A DNA stretch of 27,584 nucleotides from a virus (taxonomy: Duplodnaviria; Heunggongvirae; Uroviricota; Caudoviricetes), in the IMG/VR virus record IMGVR_UViG_640753024_000006, positions 1 to 27,584 of that record, one strand, 5' to 3'. Under the pieces are notes generated by a model. It searched no databases. It was not told the origin of the DNA and saw only the letters and a list, made by a program, of their open reading frames with translations. Position numbers and translations under genes: made by a program. Positions 4,976 to 27,317 of this stretch are shown here, piece by piece; position 1 is the first letter of the stretch; the number at the start of each line of letters is the position of its first letter.

Positions 4976-5373
4976 CTTTAAAAAGGGCGGCAGAGCAGTC
5001 ACGGAGTAAAACTGATACCGCCAAACGCCACCAGAAAATTGATAACAGAGGGCGTTGCAGCGGGGTTGTCACTTAAGCGTATGGTCAACCTGACAACCCG
5101 GTGTCCTCAACGGGGAAGGAATAACCCCGCCATACTTACCGCCGCGCCATTTCGCGGAGTGCCACAACCGGAAGCGCACGGTCGAATTAAATTTAACGAC
5201 ACCGTACAGAGAGACCAATTTCGCCGTGCGCTTTCGCGTTATGCTCTGGCTTTTCAGGGATATATCCTTTCAGTAAACTGTCAGTACCGGATTCTTATCC
5301 GTGTCCGGCGCACGACCACACGTGGCAGCGTGTTGGTCTCCATTTTTAACCCAGAACCTCAATGGAGGATAAA

Positions 5374-6677: not shown

Positions 6678-6956
6678 TTAGGGAAACTGGCGTCTTGCGT
6701 GGATCACGTTTACTACTTCAACGCTTGATGTTGTTACGCGGTATAGAATTATATAGTTAGGGTGGGCTACAATCTCACGCAAGCCAGGTACTCTGTCGCT
6801 TGGTGGGTATAAATACGGATGTTCGGATAACGGCAGCACACAACCCCTTAATCGCTGCCATAAGCGTTCAGCCGCATCTATGTCGAAACGAGCAATATAA
6901 CTAGTTATATCATCTAGGTCGGTATCTGCGCTTTCAAGCCATAACACGGGTAACAT
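6678..6956 (-). CDS. Type II toxin, RelE/ParE superfamily
   Basis: About 92 aa; C-terminal IILYRV...VEVVNVIHARR is typical of ParE/RelE toxins; ATG at 6956 directly follows the antitoxin stop (6958-6960). Confidence 0.7.
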   Translation of the reverse strand: MLPVLWLESADTDLDDITSYIARFDIDAAERLWQRLRGCVLPLSEHPYLYPPSDRVPGLREIVAHPNYIILYRVTTSSVEVVNVIHARRQFP

Positions 6957-6957
6957 T

Positions 6958-7149
6958 TTACTGCTTGCTCCGTTCCTTGCGCATCTTAGCAAAGCGTTCT
7001 GCCATTCTGCGCTCAATTTCGTCATGGGGAATTGCTGGGCGCGGATCTGCAAGGCTCGCTGCTACTTTCGCACGCAGCCATTCGTTGTAACTGTTTTCTT
7101 GTTCAATGGTTTCAAATTCAGAAACCATTGGTGAAAGGGCTCTATTCAT
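6958..7149 (-). CDS. Putative type II antitoxin (family uncertain, ParD/stability-determinant-like)
   Basis: 63-aa acidic/basic ORF immediately upstream of and abutting the toxin; GGAGGA RBS before ATG 7149. Confidence 0.6.
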   Translation of the reverse strand: MNRALSPMVSEFETIEQENSYNEWLRAKVAASLADPRPAIPHDEIERRMAERFAKMRKERSKQ

Positions 7150-12330: not shown

Positions 12331-12540
12331 AAACGGTTTGCAGTGAAAGGGGAGTTAAGTAGAATTGCTGCGGGTGCTTGAGGCTATCTGTCTCAGGCAT
12401 GAACACCAAAGGCAGATAGAGAAAAGCCCCAGTTAACATTACGCGTCCTGCAAGACGCTTAACATTAATCTGAGGCCCAATCTATGTCTCACAAATGTAG
12501 GTTAGCCTCTTACGTGCCGAAAGGCAAGGAGAAGCAGGCT

Positions 12541-12696
12541 ATGAAGCAGCAAAAGGCGATGTTAATCGCCCTTATCGTCATCTGTTTAACCGTCATAGTG
12601 ACGGCACTGGTAACGAGGAAAGACCTCTGCGAGGTACGAATCCGAACCGGCCAGACGGAGGTCGCTGTCTTCACAGCTTACGAACCTGAGGAGTAA
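12541..12696 (+). CDS. hok: Hok/Gef-family type I toxin (HokD/RelF-like)
   Basis: MKQQKAMLIALIVICLTVIVTALVTRKDLCEVRIRTGQTEVAVFTAYEPEE matches the Hok-family pattern (TM helix, conserved C..R..G.EVA.F) and my memory of RelF/HokD; AGGAGA RBS; structured leader upstream. Confidence 0.8.
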   Translation: MKQQKAMLIALIVICLTVIVTALVTRKDLCEVRIRTGQTEVAVFTAYEPEE

Positions 12697-14199: not shown

Positions 14200-14565
14200 A
14201 TGACTGAACGCATAGAATTTGTTTTGCCTTACCCGCCAACGGTGAACACTTACTGGCGACGTCGTGGCAGCACATATTTTGTATCAAAAGCCGGTGAGCG
14301 TTATCGCCGTGATGTGGCGCTTATTGTTCGCCAGCAGCGACTGAAATTAAACCTGTCCGGACGGCTGGTGATAAAGATTATTGCAGAGCCACCGGATAAA
14401 CGTCGTCGTGACCTGGACAATATCCTGAAAGCACCACTGGATGCGCTGACGCATGCCGGACTTCTCATAGACGACGAGCAGTTTGATGAAATCAATATTG
14501 TGCGCGGTCAGCTCGTTCCTGGTGGGCGGCTGGGGATAAAAATCACAGAACTGGAGTGCGCATGA
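14200..14565 (+). CDS. rusA: Holliday junction resolvase RusA
   Basis: 121 aa; VLPYPPTVNTYW... and D..DN..K..LDAL residues characteristic of RusA; nin-region position before Q. Confidence 0.85.
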   Translation: MTERIEFVLPYPPTVNTYWRRRGSTYFVSKAGERYRRDVALIVRQQRLKLNLSGRLVIKIIAEPPDKRRRDLDNILKAPLDALTHAGLLIDDEQFDEINIVRGQLVPGGRLGIKITELECA

Positions 14566-15251
14566 ATAACCAGTATTTACAGTTTGTGCGTGAGCAGCTC
14601 ATTATCGCCACCGCTGATTTGAGTGGGGCAACAAAAGGTCAGCTTGAAGCCTGGCAAGAGAATGCCATGTTCGATACAGGGCGTTACAGGCGTAAAAAAA
14701 TCCGGTACCGCGATGAAGTGACTGGAAAAATGATAACGCGGGATAATCCACCAATCCCGGGAAAGCAATCGCTGGCGAAAGGTTCATCAATTGCCCTGGT
14801 CAGTCCGGTTGAGTTTTCGACATCATCATGGCGACGCGCCGTTCTGTCTCTTGAAGAGCATCAGAAGGCGTGGGTGCTGTGGGTATACAGTGAAAATCCG
14901 AGTTGGGATTATCAGGTGGTCATTGCGAAATGGGCGTGGGATAAGTTTCAGGTGCATTTTGGCACCAGAAAAATTACAGGGAAAACGCTTGAGCGTCTGA
15001 AGAAATTAATCTGGCTGGCGGCGCAGGATGTCAGGGGGAGGATTACTGGGCGTGACGTCTACCAGCGACAGGAACTTGCCAGACTGTGTGGAGTTAAGCC
15101 TGACAACTGGAGCCATAATTATGCGAACTACTGGCGTGAGATGTGCGACATTTTTAAGAAACTCGATACAGAATCCTTGATTTGCACCGTGAAAATGAGA
15201 TCGCAACAAAAAGCGACCTTTTCACGACGAGATATTGCAAAAGTCAATTAA
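14562..15251 (+). CDS. Putative late-gene antiterminator Q (Qin QuuQ-like)
   Basis: Position after rusA and before a promoter plus short-leader terminator; ATGA overlap with the rusA stop; family assignment by position and memory only. Confidence 0.5.
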   Translation: MNNQYLQFVREQLIIATADLSGATKGQLEAWQENAMFDTGRYRRKKIRYRDEVTGKMITRDNPPIPGKQSLAKGSSIALVSPVEFSTSSWRRAVLSLEEHQKAWVLWVYSENPSWDYQVVIAKWAWDKFQVHFGTRKITGKTLERLKKLIWLAAQDVRGRITGRDVYQRQELARLCGVKPDNWSHNYANYWREMCDIFKKLDTESLICTVKMRSQQKATFSRRDIAKVN

Positions 15252-15297
15252 ATCGCATACATTTTATGTAAATGTGATATTTTGCCGTATAGTGTGT
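15235..15297 (+). promoter_or_regulatory. pR'-like late promoter and leader (putative qut region)
   Basis: TTGCAA at 15235-15240, 17-nt spacer, TACATT -10-like hexamer; also a TATAGT hexamer at 15288-15293; strong terminator immediately downstream. Confidence 0.4.
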
Positions 15298-15322
15298 AAA
15301 CCCGCTTAAATGCGGGTTTTTT
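15298..15322 (+). terminator. tR'-like rho-independent terminator
   Basis: aacccgc-ttaaat-gcgggtt stem-loop followed by TTTTTT. Confidence 0.8.
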
Positions 15323-15395
15323 GCTTAACTCTGTGGACCTTTTTATCTGTAGTTGTAAGATATGGATATTCTTACAATTTAGGTCGGTGAGCTTA

Positions 15396-16160
15396 ATGGA
15401 AGAACAGCACGGTAATTACTTTATAAAACGAATTCAGTTGATTGGAAGGGGTGCATTTGGCTTTGTTGAACACGTTAAGGTTTACAACCTCAACAAGGGT
15501 GAATGTGGGGATTATGCTAGAAAGGTTTTAGCCCCCGAAAAACCAGAGCTTTTGGCGCAAATAGAGCAGTTTAGAAGGCGTTTTAAAAGGGAGGTCGTGT
15601 ATCAATCACATTGCGTACATAGCAATATTGTTCCTATTTATTTGTGCGATTTGTTTGCCGAGAATCCATGGTTCATTATGGATAAAGCAGAATGTGATCT
15701 TGAGCACGAAATAACGAACAACCTTCTTACAACAGATCAAAAAATTTCAATAGTGAAAATGGTATTAGATGGTGTAGCTCACATCCATGCGAAAGGCTAT
15801 TTACACAGAGATATAAAACCATTTAATGTCTTGCGATTTAGCGACGGAACATACAAGGTGTCTGATTTTGGTCTGGTAAAAGATACAAATCCCGAAGGGG
15901 ATACCACTAAATTGACCGAGATCGGTACCCGTATGGGAAGTACAAGATATATGGCTCCCGAGATTTTATATAATGCCGAGTATTCAGTTAAGACTGATGT
16001 TTATGCGGTGGGGCGGTTAATTGAGGACTTAAATTTAGATGATAAAAAAATAAAGCCTATCATAGCGAAGTGTACCAGGATGGATAAAGATGATAGATAT
16101 CAGACAATAGATGATGTGGCGTTTGATTTTGTGCATTCTTTTTTAAGGAGTGAGTCATGA
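15396..16160 (+). CDS. Eukaryotic-like (Hanks-type) Ser/Thr protein kinase, minimal kinase domain (255 aa)
   Basis: Subdomain motifs GRGAFGFV (Gly loop), ARK (Lys), HRDIKPFN (catalytic loop), DFG, MAPE (APE), DVYAVG; AT-rich; ATGA overlap with the downstream gene. Confidence 0.85.
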   Translation: MEEQHGNYFIKRIQLIGRGAFGFVEHVKVYNLNKGECGDYARKVLAPEKPELLAQIEQFRRRFKREVVYQSHCVHSNIVPIYLCDLFAENPWFIMDKAECDLEHEITNNLLTTDQKISIVKMVLDGVAHIHAKGYLHRDIKPFNVLRFSDGTYKVSDFGLVKDTNPEGDTTKLTEIGTRMGSTRYMAPEILYNAEYSVKTDVYAVGRLIEDLNLDDKKIKPIIAKCTRMDKDDRYQTIDDVAFDFVHSFLRSES

Positions 16161-16900
16161 TTCAGCTGATAGCGACTTCATCATTCTCGTATCCAAAAGA
16201 ACCAGGTAGGGTCAACGAAGATTCATTGCTTCCTCCCAAAATTGTAGGGGATGGCATCTTATTTGCCGTAGCTGATGGTGTAGGTTCATACACTGGTGCC
16301 AGTCAGGCTTCATCAATGGCAATTGCTGAACTTTCAGCATTGACAAGCTTATCTTTTGACACAGTTCCGGATGTATTTGATGAAGTTAAGCGAAAGGTTA
16401 TGTCGTTAGCTGATGTTAATGATGAGTTCGATAAAGCTGCTACTACACTTACGTTTTGTTATGTTTGTGATAGCGGAATTATTATTGGTCATATTGGTGA
16501 TTGTCGTTTGTATTGCATTGGAGAGAAGAAAGCATACCAATTGACGAAGGACGATACCAGGCATCAGATGCTAATTGATCAGAATATTTTTAAACCCAGA
16601 GATTTGAAGGATAAACCGGGCAAAAATATCTTAACGACGGCGATAGCCTCAAATGTTGATATGGAATACGACTGTGATTTTATCACATGGAAAGATTTAC
16701 CTAGTATTAACGGGGTATATCATCTGTGTATCATGTCTGATGGGGTTCATAACGTTTGGGAAAAACGCCCCAGATTTACATCAAATACGATGAGTAATAG
16801 TCAGAAGTTTTCTAATGGCATTTTGCGTCGTATAGAGAGAGCCGGACCTGATGATGACTTTTCTTTAGTAAGTATAATGGTGCGTGTGACGTCAGATTAG
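16157..16900 (+). CDS. PP2C-family (PPM) Ser/Thr protein phosphatase
   Basis: Motifs RVNEDS, FAVADGVGS (DGxG), HIGDCRLY (GDSR-like) and MSDGV; 247 aa; coupled to the kinase gene. Confidence 0.8.
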   Translation: MIQLIATSSFSYPKEPGRVNEDSLLPPKIVGDGILFAVADGVGSYTGASQASSMAIAELSALTSLSFDTVPDVFDEVKRKVMSLADVNDEFDKAATTLTFCYVCDSGIIIGHIGDCRLYCIGEKKAYQLTKDDTRHQMLIDQNIFKPRDLKDKPGKNILTTAIASNVDMEYDCDFITWKDLPSINGVYHLCIMSDGVHNVWEKRPRFTSNTMSNSQKFSNGILRRIERAGPDDDFSLVSIMVRVTSD

Positions 16901-16973
16901 TTGTATAAACTCAGTAGGGAATGCTAATTTCACATACAACATAGTTAAAGAAAACTTAATTTTAATGTAAAAA

Positions 16974-16996
16974 GGCTGCCCTCAGGCGGTCTTTTT
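16974..16996 (+). terminator. Probable intrinsic terminator after the kinase-phosphatase pair
   Basis: ggctgcc-ctca-ggcggtc hairpin (with G-U pairs) followed by TTTTT. Confidence 0.45.
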
Positions 16997-17119
16997 ATGC
17001 TCGAAAATTGATGCAGTACGTTAAACGCGCTGGTGGTTGCGAATACCGGTCTTTCAGCTTGCTGGCTTTTTAGACAAGAGTTATTGGTATGTCACGTTAA
17101 CCAGAAAAGGGAAAAAGAC

Positions 17120-17317
17120 ATGCTAAAACAGCAGGATATGACCGAAACCGCCAGAGTGGTGTTTAATGAATTAAGCGTCACCGAACCGGCGACCGTCGGG
17201 GAAATTGCGCAGAATACTTACCTTTCACGCGAACGCTGCCAGTTAATCCTGACCCAGCTTGTTATGGCGGGTCTGGCAGATTATCAGTTCGGTTGTTACA
17301 GACGCCTTCTGCAGTGA
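17120..17317 (+). CDS. Small winged-helix DNA-binding protein (65 aa), possible methylase-associated regulator
   Basis: ATG 17120 with purine-rich RBS; MarR/wHTH-like TVGEIAQNTYLSRERCQLILTQL; immediately upstream of the DNA MTase gene. Confidence 0.45.
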   Translation: MLKQQDMTETARVVFNELSVTEPATVGEIAQNTYLSRERCQLILTQLVMAGLADYQFGCYRRLLQ

Positions 17318-17467
17318 AGGCTTTTTAATTTGTGGTAATGGGCGGCTGGTGGGTGTTAGCGGCACCTGCCAGCCATCTGCTCATGCGTTGGGGTCACAAG
17401 CAAACCTCAGGCCCATCTGCTTTGCGCAAAAGCAGTATGAGCCTATCAGAGAAGTGCTTATTGATCT

Positions 17468-18517
17468 ATGACTAATACTGTAAAAATATCCAGTTGTGAG
17501 TTAATCAACGCTGATTGCCTGAAATTTATCCAGACCTTACCGGAAAACTCTGTCGATCTGATAGTCACAGACCCGCCATACTTTAAAGTGAAGCCCGAGG
17601 GCTGGGATAACCAGTGGGAGGGCGACGATGATTACCTGAAATGGCTGGACCAGTGTCTGGCGCAGTTCTGGCGGGTACTGAAGCCTGCCGGAAGTCTTTA
17701 CCTGTTCTGTGGTCATCGCCTGGCATCTGACACCGAAATCATGATGCGTGAGCGCTTTAATGTGCTGAACCACATTATCTGGGCGAAGCCGTCCGGACGC
17801 TGGAACGGGTGCAATAAGGAAAGTCTGCGGGCGTATTTTCCGGCAACAGAGCGCATTCTGTTTGCAGAACATTATCAGGGACCGTATCGCCCGAAAGATG
17901 ATGGCTATGTGGCACAGGGGCGCGAGCTAAAACAGCACGTCATGGCCCCGCTGATTTCTTACTTTCGTGATGCGCGTAAATCACTGGGAATAACGTCAAA
18001 ACAGATAGCGGAAGCCACCGGAAAGAAAAACATGGCTTCGCACTGGTTTGGTACCAGTCAGTGGCAGTTACCGAACGAGGGTGATTACAACAAATTGCAG
18101 GCGTTGTTTGCGCGTGTTGCGGCAGAAAAACATCAGCGCGGGGAACTGGAAAAACCACACCACCAGCTGGTCAGCACATACAGTGAGCTGAACCGGCAGT
18201 ATACGGAATTGCTGAGTGAATATAAAAATTTGCGGCGGTATTTCGGTGTGACGGCGCAGGTTCCGTACACCGATGTCTGGACGCATAAACCGGTGCAGTA
18301 CTATCCAGGGAAACATCCGTGCGAAAAACCGGCAGAAATGCTGCAGCAGATAATCAACGCGAGCAGTCGTCCGGGAGACCTGGTTGCAGATTTTTTTATG
18401 GGTTCAGGTTCAACGGTAAAAGCGGCGATGGCACTGGGGCGTTGTGCGATTGGTGTTGAGCTGGAGACAGGACGTTTTGAACAGACAGTCAGGGAAGTTC
18501 AGGATTTAATCGTTTGA
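17468..18517 (+). CDS. DNA methyltransferase, N6-adenine (or N4-cytosine) beta-class
   Basis: DPPY motif (VTDPPYF) near the N-terminus and FxGxG SAM motif (FFMGSGST) near the C-terminus; 349 aa; same position as the methylase in Stx-type phages. Confidence 0.85.
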   Translation: MTNTVKISSCELINADCLKFIQTLPENSVDLIVTDPPYFKVKPEGWDNQWEGDDDYLKWLDQCLAQFWRVLKPAGSLYLFCGHRLASDTEIMMRERFNVLNHIIWAKPSGRWNGCNKESLRAYFPATERILFAEHYQGPYRPKDDGYVAQGRELKQHVMAPLISYFRDARKSLGITSKQIAEATGKKNMASHWFGTSQWQLPNEGDYNKLQALFARVAAEKHQRGELEKPHHQLVSTYSELNRQYTELLSEYKNLRRYFGVTAQVPYTDVWTHKPVQYYPGKHPCEKPAEMLQQIINASSRPGDLVADFFMGSGSTVKAAMALGRCAIGVELETGRFEQTVREVQDLIV

Positions 18518-18566: not shown

Positions 18567-18642
18567 GGCCCTTTAGCTCAGTGGTGAGAGCGAGCGACTC
18601 ATAATCGCCAGGTCGCTGGTTCAAATCCAGCAAGGGCCACCA
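18567..18642 (+). tRNA. tRNA with anticodon CAU (Ile2/lysidine type, ileX/ileZ-like, or Met)
   Basis: Cloverleaf folds by hand: 7-bp acceptor GGCCCTT/AAGGGCC, D-arm GCTC..GAGC, anticodon loop CTCATAA, T-loop GGTTCAAATCC, CCA end. Confidence 0.8.
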
Positions 18643-18643
18643 A

Positions 18644-18720
18644 CCGTCACCAGTTCATCAGGAAAGAGCGTCAACCCTTTAAGTTGAGTGTGCGAGGTTC
18701 GAGTCCCCGGTGGCGGTCCA
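18644..18720 (+). tRNA. Aberrant tRNA-like element (anticodon-loop CCTTTAA, apparent anticodon UUU with C at position 33); possibly a degenerate tRNA
   Basis: Acceptor CCGTCAC/GTGGCGG (one G-U), T-loop GGTTCGAGTCC and CCA end, but non-canonical C33 and a mismatched T-stem. Confidence 0.35.
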
Positions 18721-18722
18721 GT

Positions 18723-18798
<76 letters not shown>

Positions 18799-18801
18799 TA
18801 T

Positions 18802-18876
<75 letters not shown>

Positions 18877-25954: not shown

Positions 25955-26538
25955 TGGCATTCAGAATGAGTGAACAAGCACGGACCATAAAAATTTATAA
26001 TCTGCTGGCCGGAACTAATGAATTTATTGGTGAAGGTGACGCATATATTCCGCCTCATACAGGTCTGCCAGCAAACAGTACCGATATTGCACCACCAGAT
26101 ATTCCTGCTGGCTTTGTGGCTGTTTTCAACAGTGATGAGGCATCGTGGCATCTCGTTGAAGACCATCGGGGTAAAACGGTTTATGACGTAGCGTCAGGGG
26201 ACGAGTTATTTATTTCTGAACTCGGTCCGTTACCGGAAAATGTTACCTGGTTATCGCCGGAAGGGGAGTTTCAGAAGTGGAACGGCACAGCCTGGGTGAA
26301 GGATACGGAAGCAGAAAAACTGTTCCGGATCCGGGAGGCGGAAGAAACAAAAAACAACCTGATGCAGGTAGCCAGTGAGCATATTGCGCCGCTTCAGGAT
26401 GCTGCAGATCTGGAAATTGCAACGGAGGAAGAAACCTCATTGCTGGAAGCCTGGAAAAAGTATCGGGTGTTGCTGAACCGTGTTGATACATCAACTGCAC
26501 CTGATATTGAGTGGCCTACGAACCCTGTCAGGGAGTAA
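25954..26538 (+). CDS. tfa: Tail fibre assembly chaperone Tfa
   Basis: 194 aa; start overlaps the stf stop (TAATG); conserved Tfa C-terminal region (...[25 protein letters not shown]...). Confidence 0.85.
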
Positions 26539-26592: not shown

Positions 26593-27249
26593 CTATTTTT
26601 TCCCTGAAGCGGAAAACATTACTACAGTACCTTGAACCTTGGTTTTAACATTCTCGAAATGCTCTGAGAGTATATGTGTTAAGCCTTCTTCGGAATCTTT
26701 TGTGTTTGAAAAGATGCCTTTCTGATTGTAAATGCGCATCAGTTTTTGACCGAAGCTATTGTGCACAACTCCATCGCCAAGAATTGTGGCTCCGTATAGA
26801 GTTCCATCGTCAGTTAAGGCCTGCGCCGCATTGCGTATTACACAGCTTTTTGTAGATATATTTCCAGGCAGGCAGTGAAGAAGGTAAAACATGGAAATGG
26901 AATCAAATTGACCATGTAACGCCGCGGGATAAGGTTCAAAAACATCATGGCTAATTTTATGTTTAATTTTTGATTCCCCAGCCCTTGTCGATGCCGCGTT
27001 CAGGCTAGCTTCGTTCAAATCCATTAAAGATATCAGACTACTCTCAGGTACGTGGGTAAGGTAAAACCCAGTTCCAACACCAATATCCAGATGGTTGTTA
27101 CCTACATGTTCCAGAAAGTGTGGAAGAAGGTGTTCCTTTGTAGGACATCCCCATGCAAGCCGATTTGATACTCCCAAAACCCACCAGTCATAAAGCTTTA
27201 GGGTAAGTGGTGTGTAAATTTTAGCCCCATCATCTGTGTTTTTTTTCAT
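26593..27249 (-). CDS. Class I SAM-dependent methyltransferase (substrate unknown), AT-rich
   Basis: Motif I HLDIGVGTGFY (hh-D-h-G-x-G-x-G); GGTGA RBS before ATG 27249; opposite strand to the fibre genes. Confidence 0.75.
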   Translation of the reverse strand: MKKNTDDGAKIYTPLTLKLYDWWVLGVSNRLAWGCPTKEHLLPHFLEHVGNNHLDIGVGTGFYLTHVPESSLISLMDLNEASLNAASTRAGESKIKHKISHDVFEPYPAALHGQFDSISMFYLLHCLPGNISTKSCVIRNAAQALTDDGTLYGATILGDGVVHNSFGQKLMRIYNQKGIFSNTKDSEEGLTHILSEHFENVKTKVQGTVVMFSASGKK

Positions 27250-27317
27250 TGATTTCACCATGTTATAGTTTTATTTGTGAATTAAATCAATTATGGCGAT
27301 GAATTACAAGGGGTTAA

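Follow-up and report, generated by a model that had tools for sequence, protein, structure and literature searches.

Our understanding of kinase-based phage defence in Gram-negative bacteria rests on few characterised systems – KKP, PD-T4-6 and the kinase components of larger systems – and KKP is, to our knowledge, the sole phage-borne kinase/PP2C system that has been characterised experimentally. In KKP (PfpC-PfkB-PfkA), which has been found in Pf6 and in P2, P4 and Mu-like prophages, two kinases are jointly toxic via broad phosphorylation of essential proteins and the PP2C phosphatase is the antitoxin (Guo et al. 2024, Nat Commun, PMC11341870). Defence is triggered by the T4 protein Gp59, which inhibits the phosphatase, and the kinase/phosphatase balance further tunes Pf prophage production/induction, through MvaU (PMC11341870). 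Anti-phage activity has also been validated for the kinases Stk2 (Staphylococcus) and PD-T4-6 (Escherichia coli) (PMC9519451; PMC11341870), the hidden Markov models (HMMs) of the latter labelling housekeeping PASTA kinases as well (PMC11514479). Here, we describe a cassette of two genes, encoding a compact Hanks-type Ser/Thr kinase and a PP2C phosphatase, which sits as inserted cargo behind the antiterminator gene Q of a lambdoid prophage. The whole stretch of DNA that was analysed, hereafter the window, is 27,584 nucleotides (nt) long (IMG/VR virus record IMGVR_UViG_640753024_000006, positions 1 to 27,584; Caudoviricetes), and the 1.7 kb studied are 100% identical to E. coli O139:H28 E24377A (NC_009801.1). 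An earlier note, made from the sequence of the window, knew of no described kinase plus PP2C pair in such a late-operon position. This holds for the present cassette, no description of which was found in literature searches (the papers on phiES15 and on bee prophages were uninformative), and these searches turned up no well-characterised conserved pair that would correspond to it, the closest described system being KKP (PMC11341870). It does not hold for the concept of kinase/PP2C defence, which is not new because KKP has been described, but the architecture is different here, and by analogy the pair is probably a new minimal relative of the known kinase-phosphatase phage-defence modules.

The two genes are as follows.

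15396 to 16160, + strand: compact Hanks-type Ser/Thr protein kinase of 254 amino acids (Pfam Pkinase, PF00069, E 2e-33)
16157 to 16900, + strand: PPM/PP2C-type Ser/Thr phosphatase of 247 amino acids (Pfam PP2C_2, PF13672, E 2e-14)

The kinase, which scores 116.4 bits against the Pkinase profile (cut-off 31.7), displays the motifs GRGAFG, ARK (K43), E66, HRDIKPFN, DFG and APE, the catalytic loop HRDIKPFN being of the Ser/Thr and not of the Tyr type. In an alignment of 40 homologues (43-75% identity), no variation is seen at G17xG19xFG22, K43, E66, H137RDxKxxN144, D157FG, D201 or R234, and hardly any at T174 of the activation loop or in APE. The AlphaFold2 model is confident, with a predicted local distance difference test score (pLDDT) of 90.1 and a predicted template-modelling score (pTM) of 0.87, the activation loop alone being disordered, and Foldseek superposes it over the whole domain on the complete kinase domains of PknB, Stk1, Src and RET, with template-modelling (TM) scores of 0.7-0.8. 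The full motif set that had been noticed earlier is thus present and does align to a kinase fold, in a protein that is one residue shorter than the 255 first given. This protein is a bare catalytic domain: a Pfam search returned only Pkinase and PK_Tyr_Ser-Thr and no sensor or accessory domain, and 254 residues are too few for a further one. NCBIfam holds no specific family for it, its best match being the PknB PASTA kinase, far below cut-off; a weak similarity to LegK1, a Legionella effector kinase (E 2e-13), is far below cut-off as well. PADLOC reported mad6, PD-T4-6 (E 1e-34) and Stk2 (E 5e-28), which were rejected as evidence for a known defence system because they cover the kinase core only (for instance, profile positions 11-201 of 327) and because the PD-T4-6 HMMs are unspecific.

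The phosphatase scores 54 bits against PP2C_2 (cut-off 24), has the motifs NED, DGVG, GDCR, SDG and DD, and retains without exception, among 40 aligned homologues (40-82% identity), the metal-binding residues N20xD22, D40GxG43, H112xGDxR117, D195G and D233D234, which include the acidic residues of motifs I, II, VIII and XI. Its model (pLDDT 93.3, pTM 0.91) is a PPM β-sandwich, with TM scores of 0.75-0.80 to PstP, Stp1, S. agalactiae STP, tPphA and PppA, that is, to bacterial PPM partners of Hanks kinases. Here again, NCBIfam has no specific family (the best match, Stp1/IreP, is far below cut-off), and PADLOC gave no meaningful match (best E 0.007) and none to TerY-P. The clade is discrete, 19 clusters at 50% identity being found at E <=1e-30 vs 527 at 1e-10 in a search of 1.84 billion representatives. 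Kinase-PP2C fusion proteins, as hinted at by PHROG 5650 (565 positions, the PP2C matching 273-520), were considered and rejected, since all 120 best PP2C homologues are proteins of 239-259 amino acids; a single representative of 371 amino acids occurs among the cluster representatives. Neither the kinase nor the phosphatase has an apparent N-terminal signal sequence. Profile searches and structure predictions of both proteins, which the earlier note had proposed as a check, confirmed the kinase and PP2C folds and the metal-binding motifs that it had read in the second gene, and since profiles, invariant catalytic residues, confident models and fold matches agree, both proteins, the catalytic sites of which are intact, are almost certainly active enzymes as predicted.

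The second key property of these genes is that they behave as one unit. The stop codon of the kinase gene and the start codon of the phosphatase gene overlap as ATGA (16157-16160), exactly as first noticed. In IMG/VR, where at least 450 relatives were confirmed, among the 599 pattern matches listed, and where counts of loci use the best 80, the kinase is immediately followed by a co-oriented PP2C homologue in 80/80 loci, as it is in every genome context examined. The junction is also conserved: among 65 distinct cassette sequences, 51 have a 4-nt overlap, three a 1-nt overlap, four other overlaps, four gaps of 0-4 nt and three are disrupted, which means that stop and start overlap or nearly abut (<=4 nt) in 62 of the 65. 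The two proteins co-diverge (pairwise identities r = 0.88; Mantel 0/999), and both genes are under purifying selection, the ratio of nonsynonymous to synonymous substitution (dN/dS) ranging from 0.03 to 0.13, and are intact in a prophage without head and tail genes. Measured against the window copy, dN/dS is 0.037 for the kinase and 0.131 for the phosphatase in a variant E. coli group, and 0.030 and 0.085, respectively, in locus L030 (dS ~1). Across the examined loci, no further gene consistently accompanies the two. These small, adjacent, co-oriented and coupled genes, inherited together on mobile elements, resemble a toxin-antitoxin module (type VII-like) in architecture.

How the cassette came to sit behind Q can be read from the E. 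coli isolate AF14, in which RusA, Q, a small open reading frame (ORF) and a methylase are collinear with the window, minus ~1.65-1.7 kb. On the left, homology to AF14 stops between 15288 and 15289, at ...TGATATTTTGCCG, and on the right it restarts at ~16965, at the hairpin AAAAAGGCTGCCCTCAGGCGGTCTTTTT. The DNA inserted in the late leader therefore runs from 15289 to ~16965. The region is AT-rich, in agreement with the first reading, with a GC content of 0.37-0.40 over ~15200-17000 vs ~0.50 on both sides. Like lambdoid morons, the cassette is thus absent from a collinear relative and has a composition unlike that of the backbone. Its borders comprise the following features.

15273 to 15293, + strand: conserved late-leader motif TG(T)GATATTTTGCCG-TATAG, inside which the left junction of the insertion falls (15288/15289)
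15298 to 15325, + strand: terminator T1, AAACCCGC-6 nt-GCGGGTTT then TTTTTT, found by the scan (stem 15298-15319 plus T-run; fold -14.2 kcal/mol, z -3.9)
15326 to 15395, + strand: 5' untranslated region of the cassette, with palindrome, weak promoter-like site and ribosome-binding region
16901 to 16965, + strand: 3' tail of the insert, AT-rich, with the right junction inside it or at its end; ~91% conserved in the variant E. coli group
16968 to 16997, + strand: terminator T2, AAAAAGGCTGCC-CTCA-GGCGGTCTTTTT, which aligns with AF14 AAAAAAAACTGCCGTCAGGCGGTTTTTTTTT and the backbone beyond (fold -18.3 kcal/mol, z -3.7)

Two terminators do flank the cassette, as had been reported, but their ancestry differs from what the tR'-like label of the upstream one had suggested. 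T1 is absent from the cassette-free AF14 at the equivalent position, whereas L026-31 and L030 have a homologue of it ahead of the kinase, and a terminator also stands at this place in phiES15. On this comparison, T1 came in with the AT-rich insert, and it is the one that now comes first behind Q. T2, an imperfect hairpin and hence missed by the simple scan (none of 200 shuffles folded as well), corresponds to the resident terminator that directly follows Q in AF14, presumably its tR', homology to AF14 restarting at this very hairpin. The present order is therefore Q, leader motif, T1, kinase, PP2C, T2 and late genes. A motif of the form TGATATT(T/A/G)..GCCG..TATAG followed by a terminator is common to several leaders of PF06323-type Q genes, including those of L030, of phiES15 and, in slightly degenerate form, of the variant E. 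coli group; it lies at 15273-15293 in the window, at 5820-5850 in L003 and upstream of the kinase in L030. The left-side order of leader motif, terminator, 5' untranslated region and kinase is kept in carriers with the same Q type, that is, the 96%-identical variant E. coli group, L030 and the inducible Cronobacter phage phiES15. The motif is probably part of the late promoter or of the Q-loading site that serves Q proteins of this type; the promoter scan found no consensus promoter there, and no sequence relative of known structure was found for this type of Q. The leader motif coincides with the recombination junction, and the simplest account would be that the cassette entered by recombination within this conserved motif between two Q-related phages, one of which already bore the cassette behind its own tR'. 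Recombination at the leader motif would have doubled a tR'-type terminator around the cargo, which illustrates a route of cargo exchange among lambdoid phages at a region that carries stx. In Stx phages, stx sits in the Q-proximal late region.

The 5' region of the cassette contains a ribosome-binding region, GGTGAG (15386-15391), and the exact 8-bp inverted repeat that had been pointed out between 15353 and 15377, TTGTAAGA-9 nt-TCTTACAA (15353-15360/15370-15377), which ends 18 nt 5' of the start codon. The palindrome extends to 10 pairs (15351-15379) and would fold as an RNA hairpin of -11.8 kcal/mol (z -3.45), while the whole 75-nt region around it is not unusually structured (fold z -1.2). 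It is modestly above chance, since such a repeat occurs in 2.2% of shuffles of the 144-nt spacer between Q and the kinase, and there are 24 in the full window. One pair is changed from G-C to T-G in the variant E. coli group, which keeps the RNA pair (U·G) but loses the DNA symmetry; the palindrome is lost in L030, and the 5' regions in Yersinia, L034 and L035 are unrelated. A conserved operator was thus rejected, the palindrome being retained only in the closest E. coli variants, in which it may be either a DNA operator or an mRNA hairpin. Its left arm is overlapped by a weak promoter-like site, TGGACC-16-TAAGAT (15334-15361), which matches 8/12 positions by eye. This is the best candidate upstream of the kinase, none reaching the 9/12 positions set as the threshold of the promoter scan.

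The survey of other prophages that the earlier note had suggested reveals a pair that is horizontally mobile and not confined to the late operon. In E. coli, it is found in 50 of 5,426 complete genomes, with 95-100% identity and always on the chromosome, the E24377A chromosome having a second match place in this search. Beyond E. coli, both families, which are composed of proteins of ~250 amino acids, occur in Enterobacterales, Pasteurellales, Vibrionales, Aeromonas, Pseudomonas, Acinetobacter and Xanthomonas, in the following slots.

Behind Q and before the lysis genes: 22 of the 80 IMG/VR loci (PF06323 or PF03589 Q), three Yersinia pseudotuberculosis prophages (two with a PF03589 Q and one with a PF06530 Q) and phiES15
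Between the genes for spanin and terminase: at least 14 IMG/VR loci, phage Flotzy, Photorhabdus, and Enterobacter prophages in which the packaging module is of two different types
Directly behind a cI-like repressor, on the same strand: at least nine IMG/VR loci
Behind an N-like antiterminator: four IMG/VR loci
Beside SieB: loci L052 and L056
Between the single-stranded DNA-binding protein and antirepressor genes, near int: one Haemophilus prophage
Outside phages: 12 PLSDB plasmids, a transposase-rich island in P. putida and a bare chromosomal islet in Aeromonas

The cassette is thus found behind three unrelated Q families, and its status as cargo in the Q-proximal late slot, proposed from the window, is confirmed by its absence from the collinear AF14. 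The late-operon position is nevertheless incidental and does not define the pair, given that copies occupy at least four further slots in phages as well as sites in plasmids and chromosomal islets. In locus L044, a divergent cro-like gene is followed by the repressor, a 95-nt gap without a terminator, the kinase, the PP2C and a strong terminator, which is, by analogy, the layout of λ cI-rexA-rexB. Small non-mobilisable Acinetobacter plasmids of 10-19 kb carry the pair beside RelE/ParE genes or genes for an AAA ATPase and an HNH protein, as in A. johnsonii pAJ4132 (L098, 4378-6762), where it comes right after a RelE/ParE toxin-antitoxin, and in A. baumannii plasmid plas3_LRT (L099, 3944-7738), where it comes right after an AAA ATPase and a 'retron system putative HNH endonuclease'. 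In Xanthomonas arboricola (L100, 5148-10646), a SymE toxin gene and a gene for a 654-amino-acid NACHT/STAND ATPase lie on either side of the pair, and the locus looks like a small defence islet.

A separate observation concerns Vibrio vulnificus (L010, 7418-14801), in which the pair adjoins a small prophage-like block with a double-jelly-roll major capsid protein (Pfam P2_N/P2_C) that is corticovirus-like. This capsid type implies that carriage goes beyond tailed phages.

The prophage in the window, which is lambdoid and integrated between potC and potB according to the RefSeq annotation, is composed of int/xis, DicB/YdfD, a RelE/RelB pair, replication genes, HokD, DUF968, RusA and Q, then the kinase and PP2C, a small ORF, a DNA methyltransferase, tRNAs and lysis genes. 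Past the lysis genes, the small terminase subunit is directly followed by a Lom fragment, stfR tail-fibre and tail-fibre assembly genes (window ~21700-27600; L001 22426-28285). No head or tail morphogenesis genes are annotated in the RefSeq record of this prophage, which is defective, since only small terminase, Lom fragment and tail-fibre genes follow the lysis genes. An exonuclease gene near the left end is, in addition, frameshifted. Two backbone features border the cassette.

14562 to 15251, + strand: Q antiterminator gene of the PF06323 type (Pfam Phage_antiter_Q, E 4e-84; RefSeq WP_001064887.1), the same gene being present in the cassette-free relative
17120 to 18517, + strand: resident backbone 3' of the cassette, i.e. 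a small hypothetical protein (phrog_331) and an N6/N4 DNA methyltransferase (Pfam, PHROG and PADLOC matches), in the same order in the cassette-free AF14

Q hence belongs to the resident prophage backbone and not to the cassette. A functional link between the cassette and the methyltransferase two genes downstream (MADS-like) was rejected too, since methylase and small ORF are backbone genes that are present without the cassette. The RusA-Q plus methylase backbone is common to thousands of E. coli prophages, with matches in a median of two and up to 10 places per E. coli genome. Several other features of this prophage deserve a brief mention. The tRNA cluster 3' of the methyltransferase (window 18567-18876) comprises a tRNA with anticodon CAT (Ile per RefSeq), Thr(TGT) and Gly(TCC), where AF14 has Ile-Arg-Arg at the equivalent position; a fourth tRNA, Lys(TTT) (18644-18720), was called by ARAGORN only and is unsupported by Rfam at the gathering threshold or by RefSeq. 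Rfam identified the DicF antisense RNA (4985-5036, - strand), the sok antitoxin RNA beside hokD (12372-12546, + strand) and the IS009 RNA family (26297-26495, + strand), which together with DicB/YdfD indicate a Qin-like left arm. The RelE/ParE-RelB toxin-antitoxin pair (6678-7149, - strand) lies in the immunity region, where it adjoins repressor-like genes and a YdaT-family gene, and a class I SAM-dependent methyltransferase gene (26593-27261, - strand), located among remnants of tail-fibre assembly genes at the right end of the prophage, is likely to be cargo as well.

What could the pair do? Because the cassette is autonomous, mobile, strongly conserved, strictly paired and recurrent in slots for exclusion, defence and addiction genes, we favour a self-contained phosphorylation switch, composed of a kinase effector and a phosphatase brake, for phage exclusion, abortive infection or addiction. 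This reading rests on context and analogy, and our confidence in it is evenly balanced. In such a scenario, (i) the kinase would autophosphorylate on its activation loop (T174) and then phosphorylate host or phage proteins, (ii) the phosphatase made from the same mRNA would hold the kinase in check and (iii) an invading phage, or loss of the element, would upset this balance, with the result that the unchecked kinase would arrest the cell or block the invader, as in KKP. We infer in this way a toxicity of the kinase, an antidote role of the phosphatase, a trigger, a defence phenotype and a timing of expression in this prophage. A bolder version, which we advance only tentatively, is that the pair could be an autonomous two-gene immune/addiction system of an undescribed kind, a minimal and sensor-less phosphorylation defence in which the phosphatase, or the complex, would itself be the sensor disturbed by phages; such a system would be always on in lysogens when in a repressor operon and, when behind Q, armed only at induction against competitors. 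The exclusion hypothesis of the earlier note, reasonable by analogy, is hence partly supported, since enzymes, coupling and cargo status were right, while uniqueness is reduced by KKP and the late position is incidental.

Several points weigh against a defensive switch. Both in the prophage of the window and in the majority of enterobacterial copies, a terminator precedes the cassette, which forms part of a Q-dependent late unit and has no promoter of its own at the scan threshold (8/12 at best), so that it may be silent in lysogens and expressed only on induction, which is awkward for a role in protecting the lysogen. The lack of a sensor domain in the kinase means that no trigger can be proposed from sequence. 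The association with defence genes in plasmids and islands is anecdotal and only suggestive, and PADLOC matches nothing but a generic kinase domain, the PP2C having no meaningful match.

The first of these points is the mainstay of a rival explanation, host manipulation during the lytic cycle, according to which the pair would be made only once Q antitermination opens the late operon and would then reprogram host or phage proteins late (lysis timing, host shut-off or protection of the producer cell), the phosphatase limiting or timing the kinase. This agrees with the position of T1 between leader and kinase, with no promoter at threshold downstream of T1, as well as with the 22 Q-proximal loci and the at least 14 loci between lysis and terminase genes among the 80, always on the late strand, and with the same picture in phiES15, Flotzy and the Yersinia, Enterobacter and Photorhabdus prophages. 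We nevertheless consider it unlikely, though worth keeping in mind, because it fails to explain the copies in cI operons, behind N, close to int in Haemophilus, on small non-phage plasmids or at chromosomal islets, none of which has a late operon, and the strong purifying selection in a prophage unable to make virions. If true, it would be a rare case of late-expressed, reversible phosphorylation of the host by a temperate phage. The three explanations that remain appear less likely than a lytic-cycle role. That the kinase phosphorylates a phage repressor, or else a nucleoid or regulatory protein of the host, and thereby, with the phosphatase as counterweight, sets the induction frequency of its carrier or of co-resident prophages, as KKP does via MvaU, making the pair a regulator of lysogeny or of prophage-prophage crosstalk, would fit the control of Pf prophage production by the KKP balance (PMC11341870), the at least nine IMG/VR loci directly behind a cI-like repressor and the several lambdoid prophages of E24377A-like strains (median of two backbone places, up to 10). 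It is doubtful, however, as plasmid copies and chromosomal copies away from phages leave no prophage to regulate, and the FHA and CSD domains required for joint activity of the KKP kinases are absent.

Counter-defence, in which the phosphatase would erase the phosphorylation imposed by host immune kinases (such as those of Stk2, KKP or PD-T4-6 systems) while its partner would inactivate host defence proteins, suits a phage-borne pair that is widespread in temperate phages, and kinase-based defences do occur in the same hosts (PMC11341870; PMC9519451). Yet two independent anti-defence tools would not be expected to show strict pairing, coupling and co-divergence, the plasmid copies adjoin toxin-antitoxin and defence genes, and no match to any anti-defence family was found, all of which makes this option improbable. 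More improbable still, to the point of being barely credible, is virulence cargo, i.e. a secreted kinase effector acting on an animal host. The carrier strains are mostly human isolates of the enterotoxigenic type, the slot is the textbook site of the toxin genes of Stx phages and there is the weak, sub-threshold NCBIfam similarity to LegK1 mentioned above, but Gammaproteobacteria from the environment and from insects frequently carry homologues (among them Pseudomonas putida, Vibrio, Photobacterium, Gilliamella and Xenorhabdus), secreted kinase effectors do not come with an obligate phosphatase partner and neither N-terminus is signal-like. The cassette lends itself well to experiments, being ~1.5 kb long, strictly paired, common (at least 450 IMG/VR relatives) and placed in classic slots of exclusion genes. 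Its study could reveal how a sensor-less kinase gets switched on by infection and whether the phosphatase can be a guarded component.

Comparison with known systems helps to delineate what is particular to this pair. In terms of position, λ rexA-rexB and the morons bor, lom and stx are accessory cargo in the same slots (behind cI, from Q to lysis and from lysis to packaging genes), with deviant composition and terminators as boundaries, but their proteins are unrelated to the pair and the analogy is positional only. The TerY-P triad is composed of the vWA protein TerY, a PP2C and a kinase; no vWA/TerY neighbour was found in the window or in any examined locus. The YegI/PphC pair of E. coli K-12 is a separate, chromosomal case. 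Stk of phage 933W, cited earlier as an example of a phage kinase and reportedly responsible for abortive exclusion of HK97, is a eukaryotic-like kinase of a lambdoid prophage, and some relatives of the pair occupy the same kind of slot in the immunity region. It is, however, generic kinase kin and not a close relative of the window kinase (26% identity over 68% of the query, E 5e-7), no PP2C is annotated beneath the 933W Stk matches themselves (their flanks were not inspected), and the window copy is in the late leader and not in the immunity region. Stk2 and PD-T4-6 differ in being single genes with extra C-terminal regions and without a dedicated phosphatase. The best matches of both proteins, in sequence and fold, are PknB/PstP, Stk1/Stp1 and PrkC/PrpC, the PknB/PstP-type pairs of Gram-positive bacteria being the nearest relatives that have been characterised; these too are encoded by adjacent, co-transcribed kinase and PPM phosphatase genes, but the kinases of these systems are membrane proteins of 560-660 amino acids with PASTA sensors and housekeeping roles, whereas the present pair is sensor-less, mobile and borne by phages and plasmids, its NCBIfam equivalog scores being far under the cut-offs (104 vs 450 bits and 93.5 vs 230 bits).

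This leaves KKP, from which the pair is set apart by the published description. KKP has three genes in the order PP2C-kinase-kinase, whereas there are two genes here and the kinase comes first (80/80 viral loci); the KKP kinases have 300-430 amino acids and need a C-terminal FHA (PfkB) or cold-shock CSD (PfkA) domain, whereas here there is a bare domain of 254 amino acids; and KKP has been described from P2, P4, Mu-like and Pf prophages, whereas the pair occupies the late and immunity regions of lambdoid elements as well as small plasmids and chromosomal islets. By the criteria of the KKP paper, the pair as it appears from its sequence is not a KKP module, in gene number, in gene order or in FHA/CSD domains. 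What the two have in common is that they are prophage-borne accessory cassettes, which combine a Hanks-type kinase with a PF13672 PP2C and are mobile among Gram-negative bacteria.

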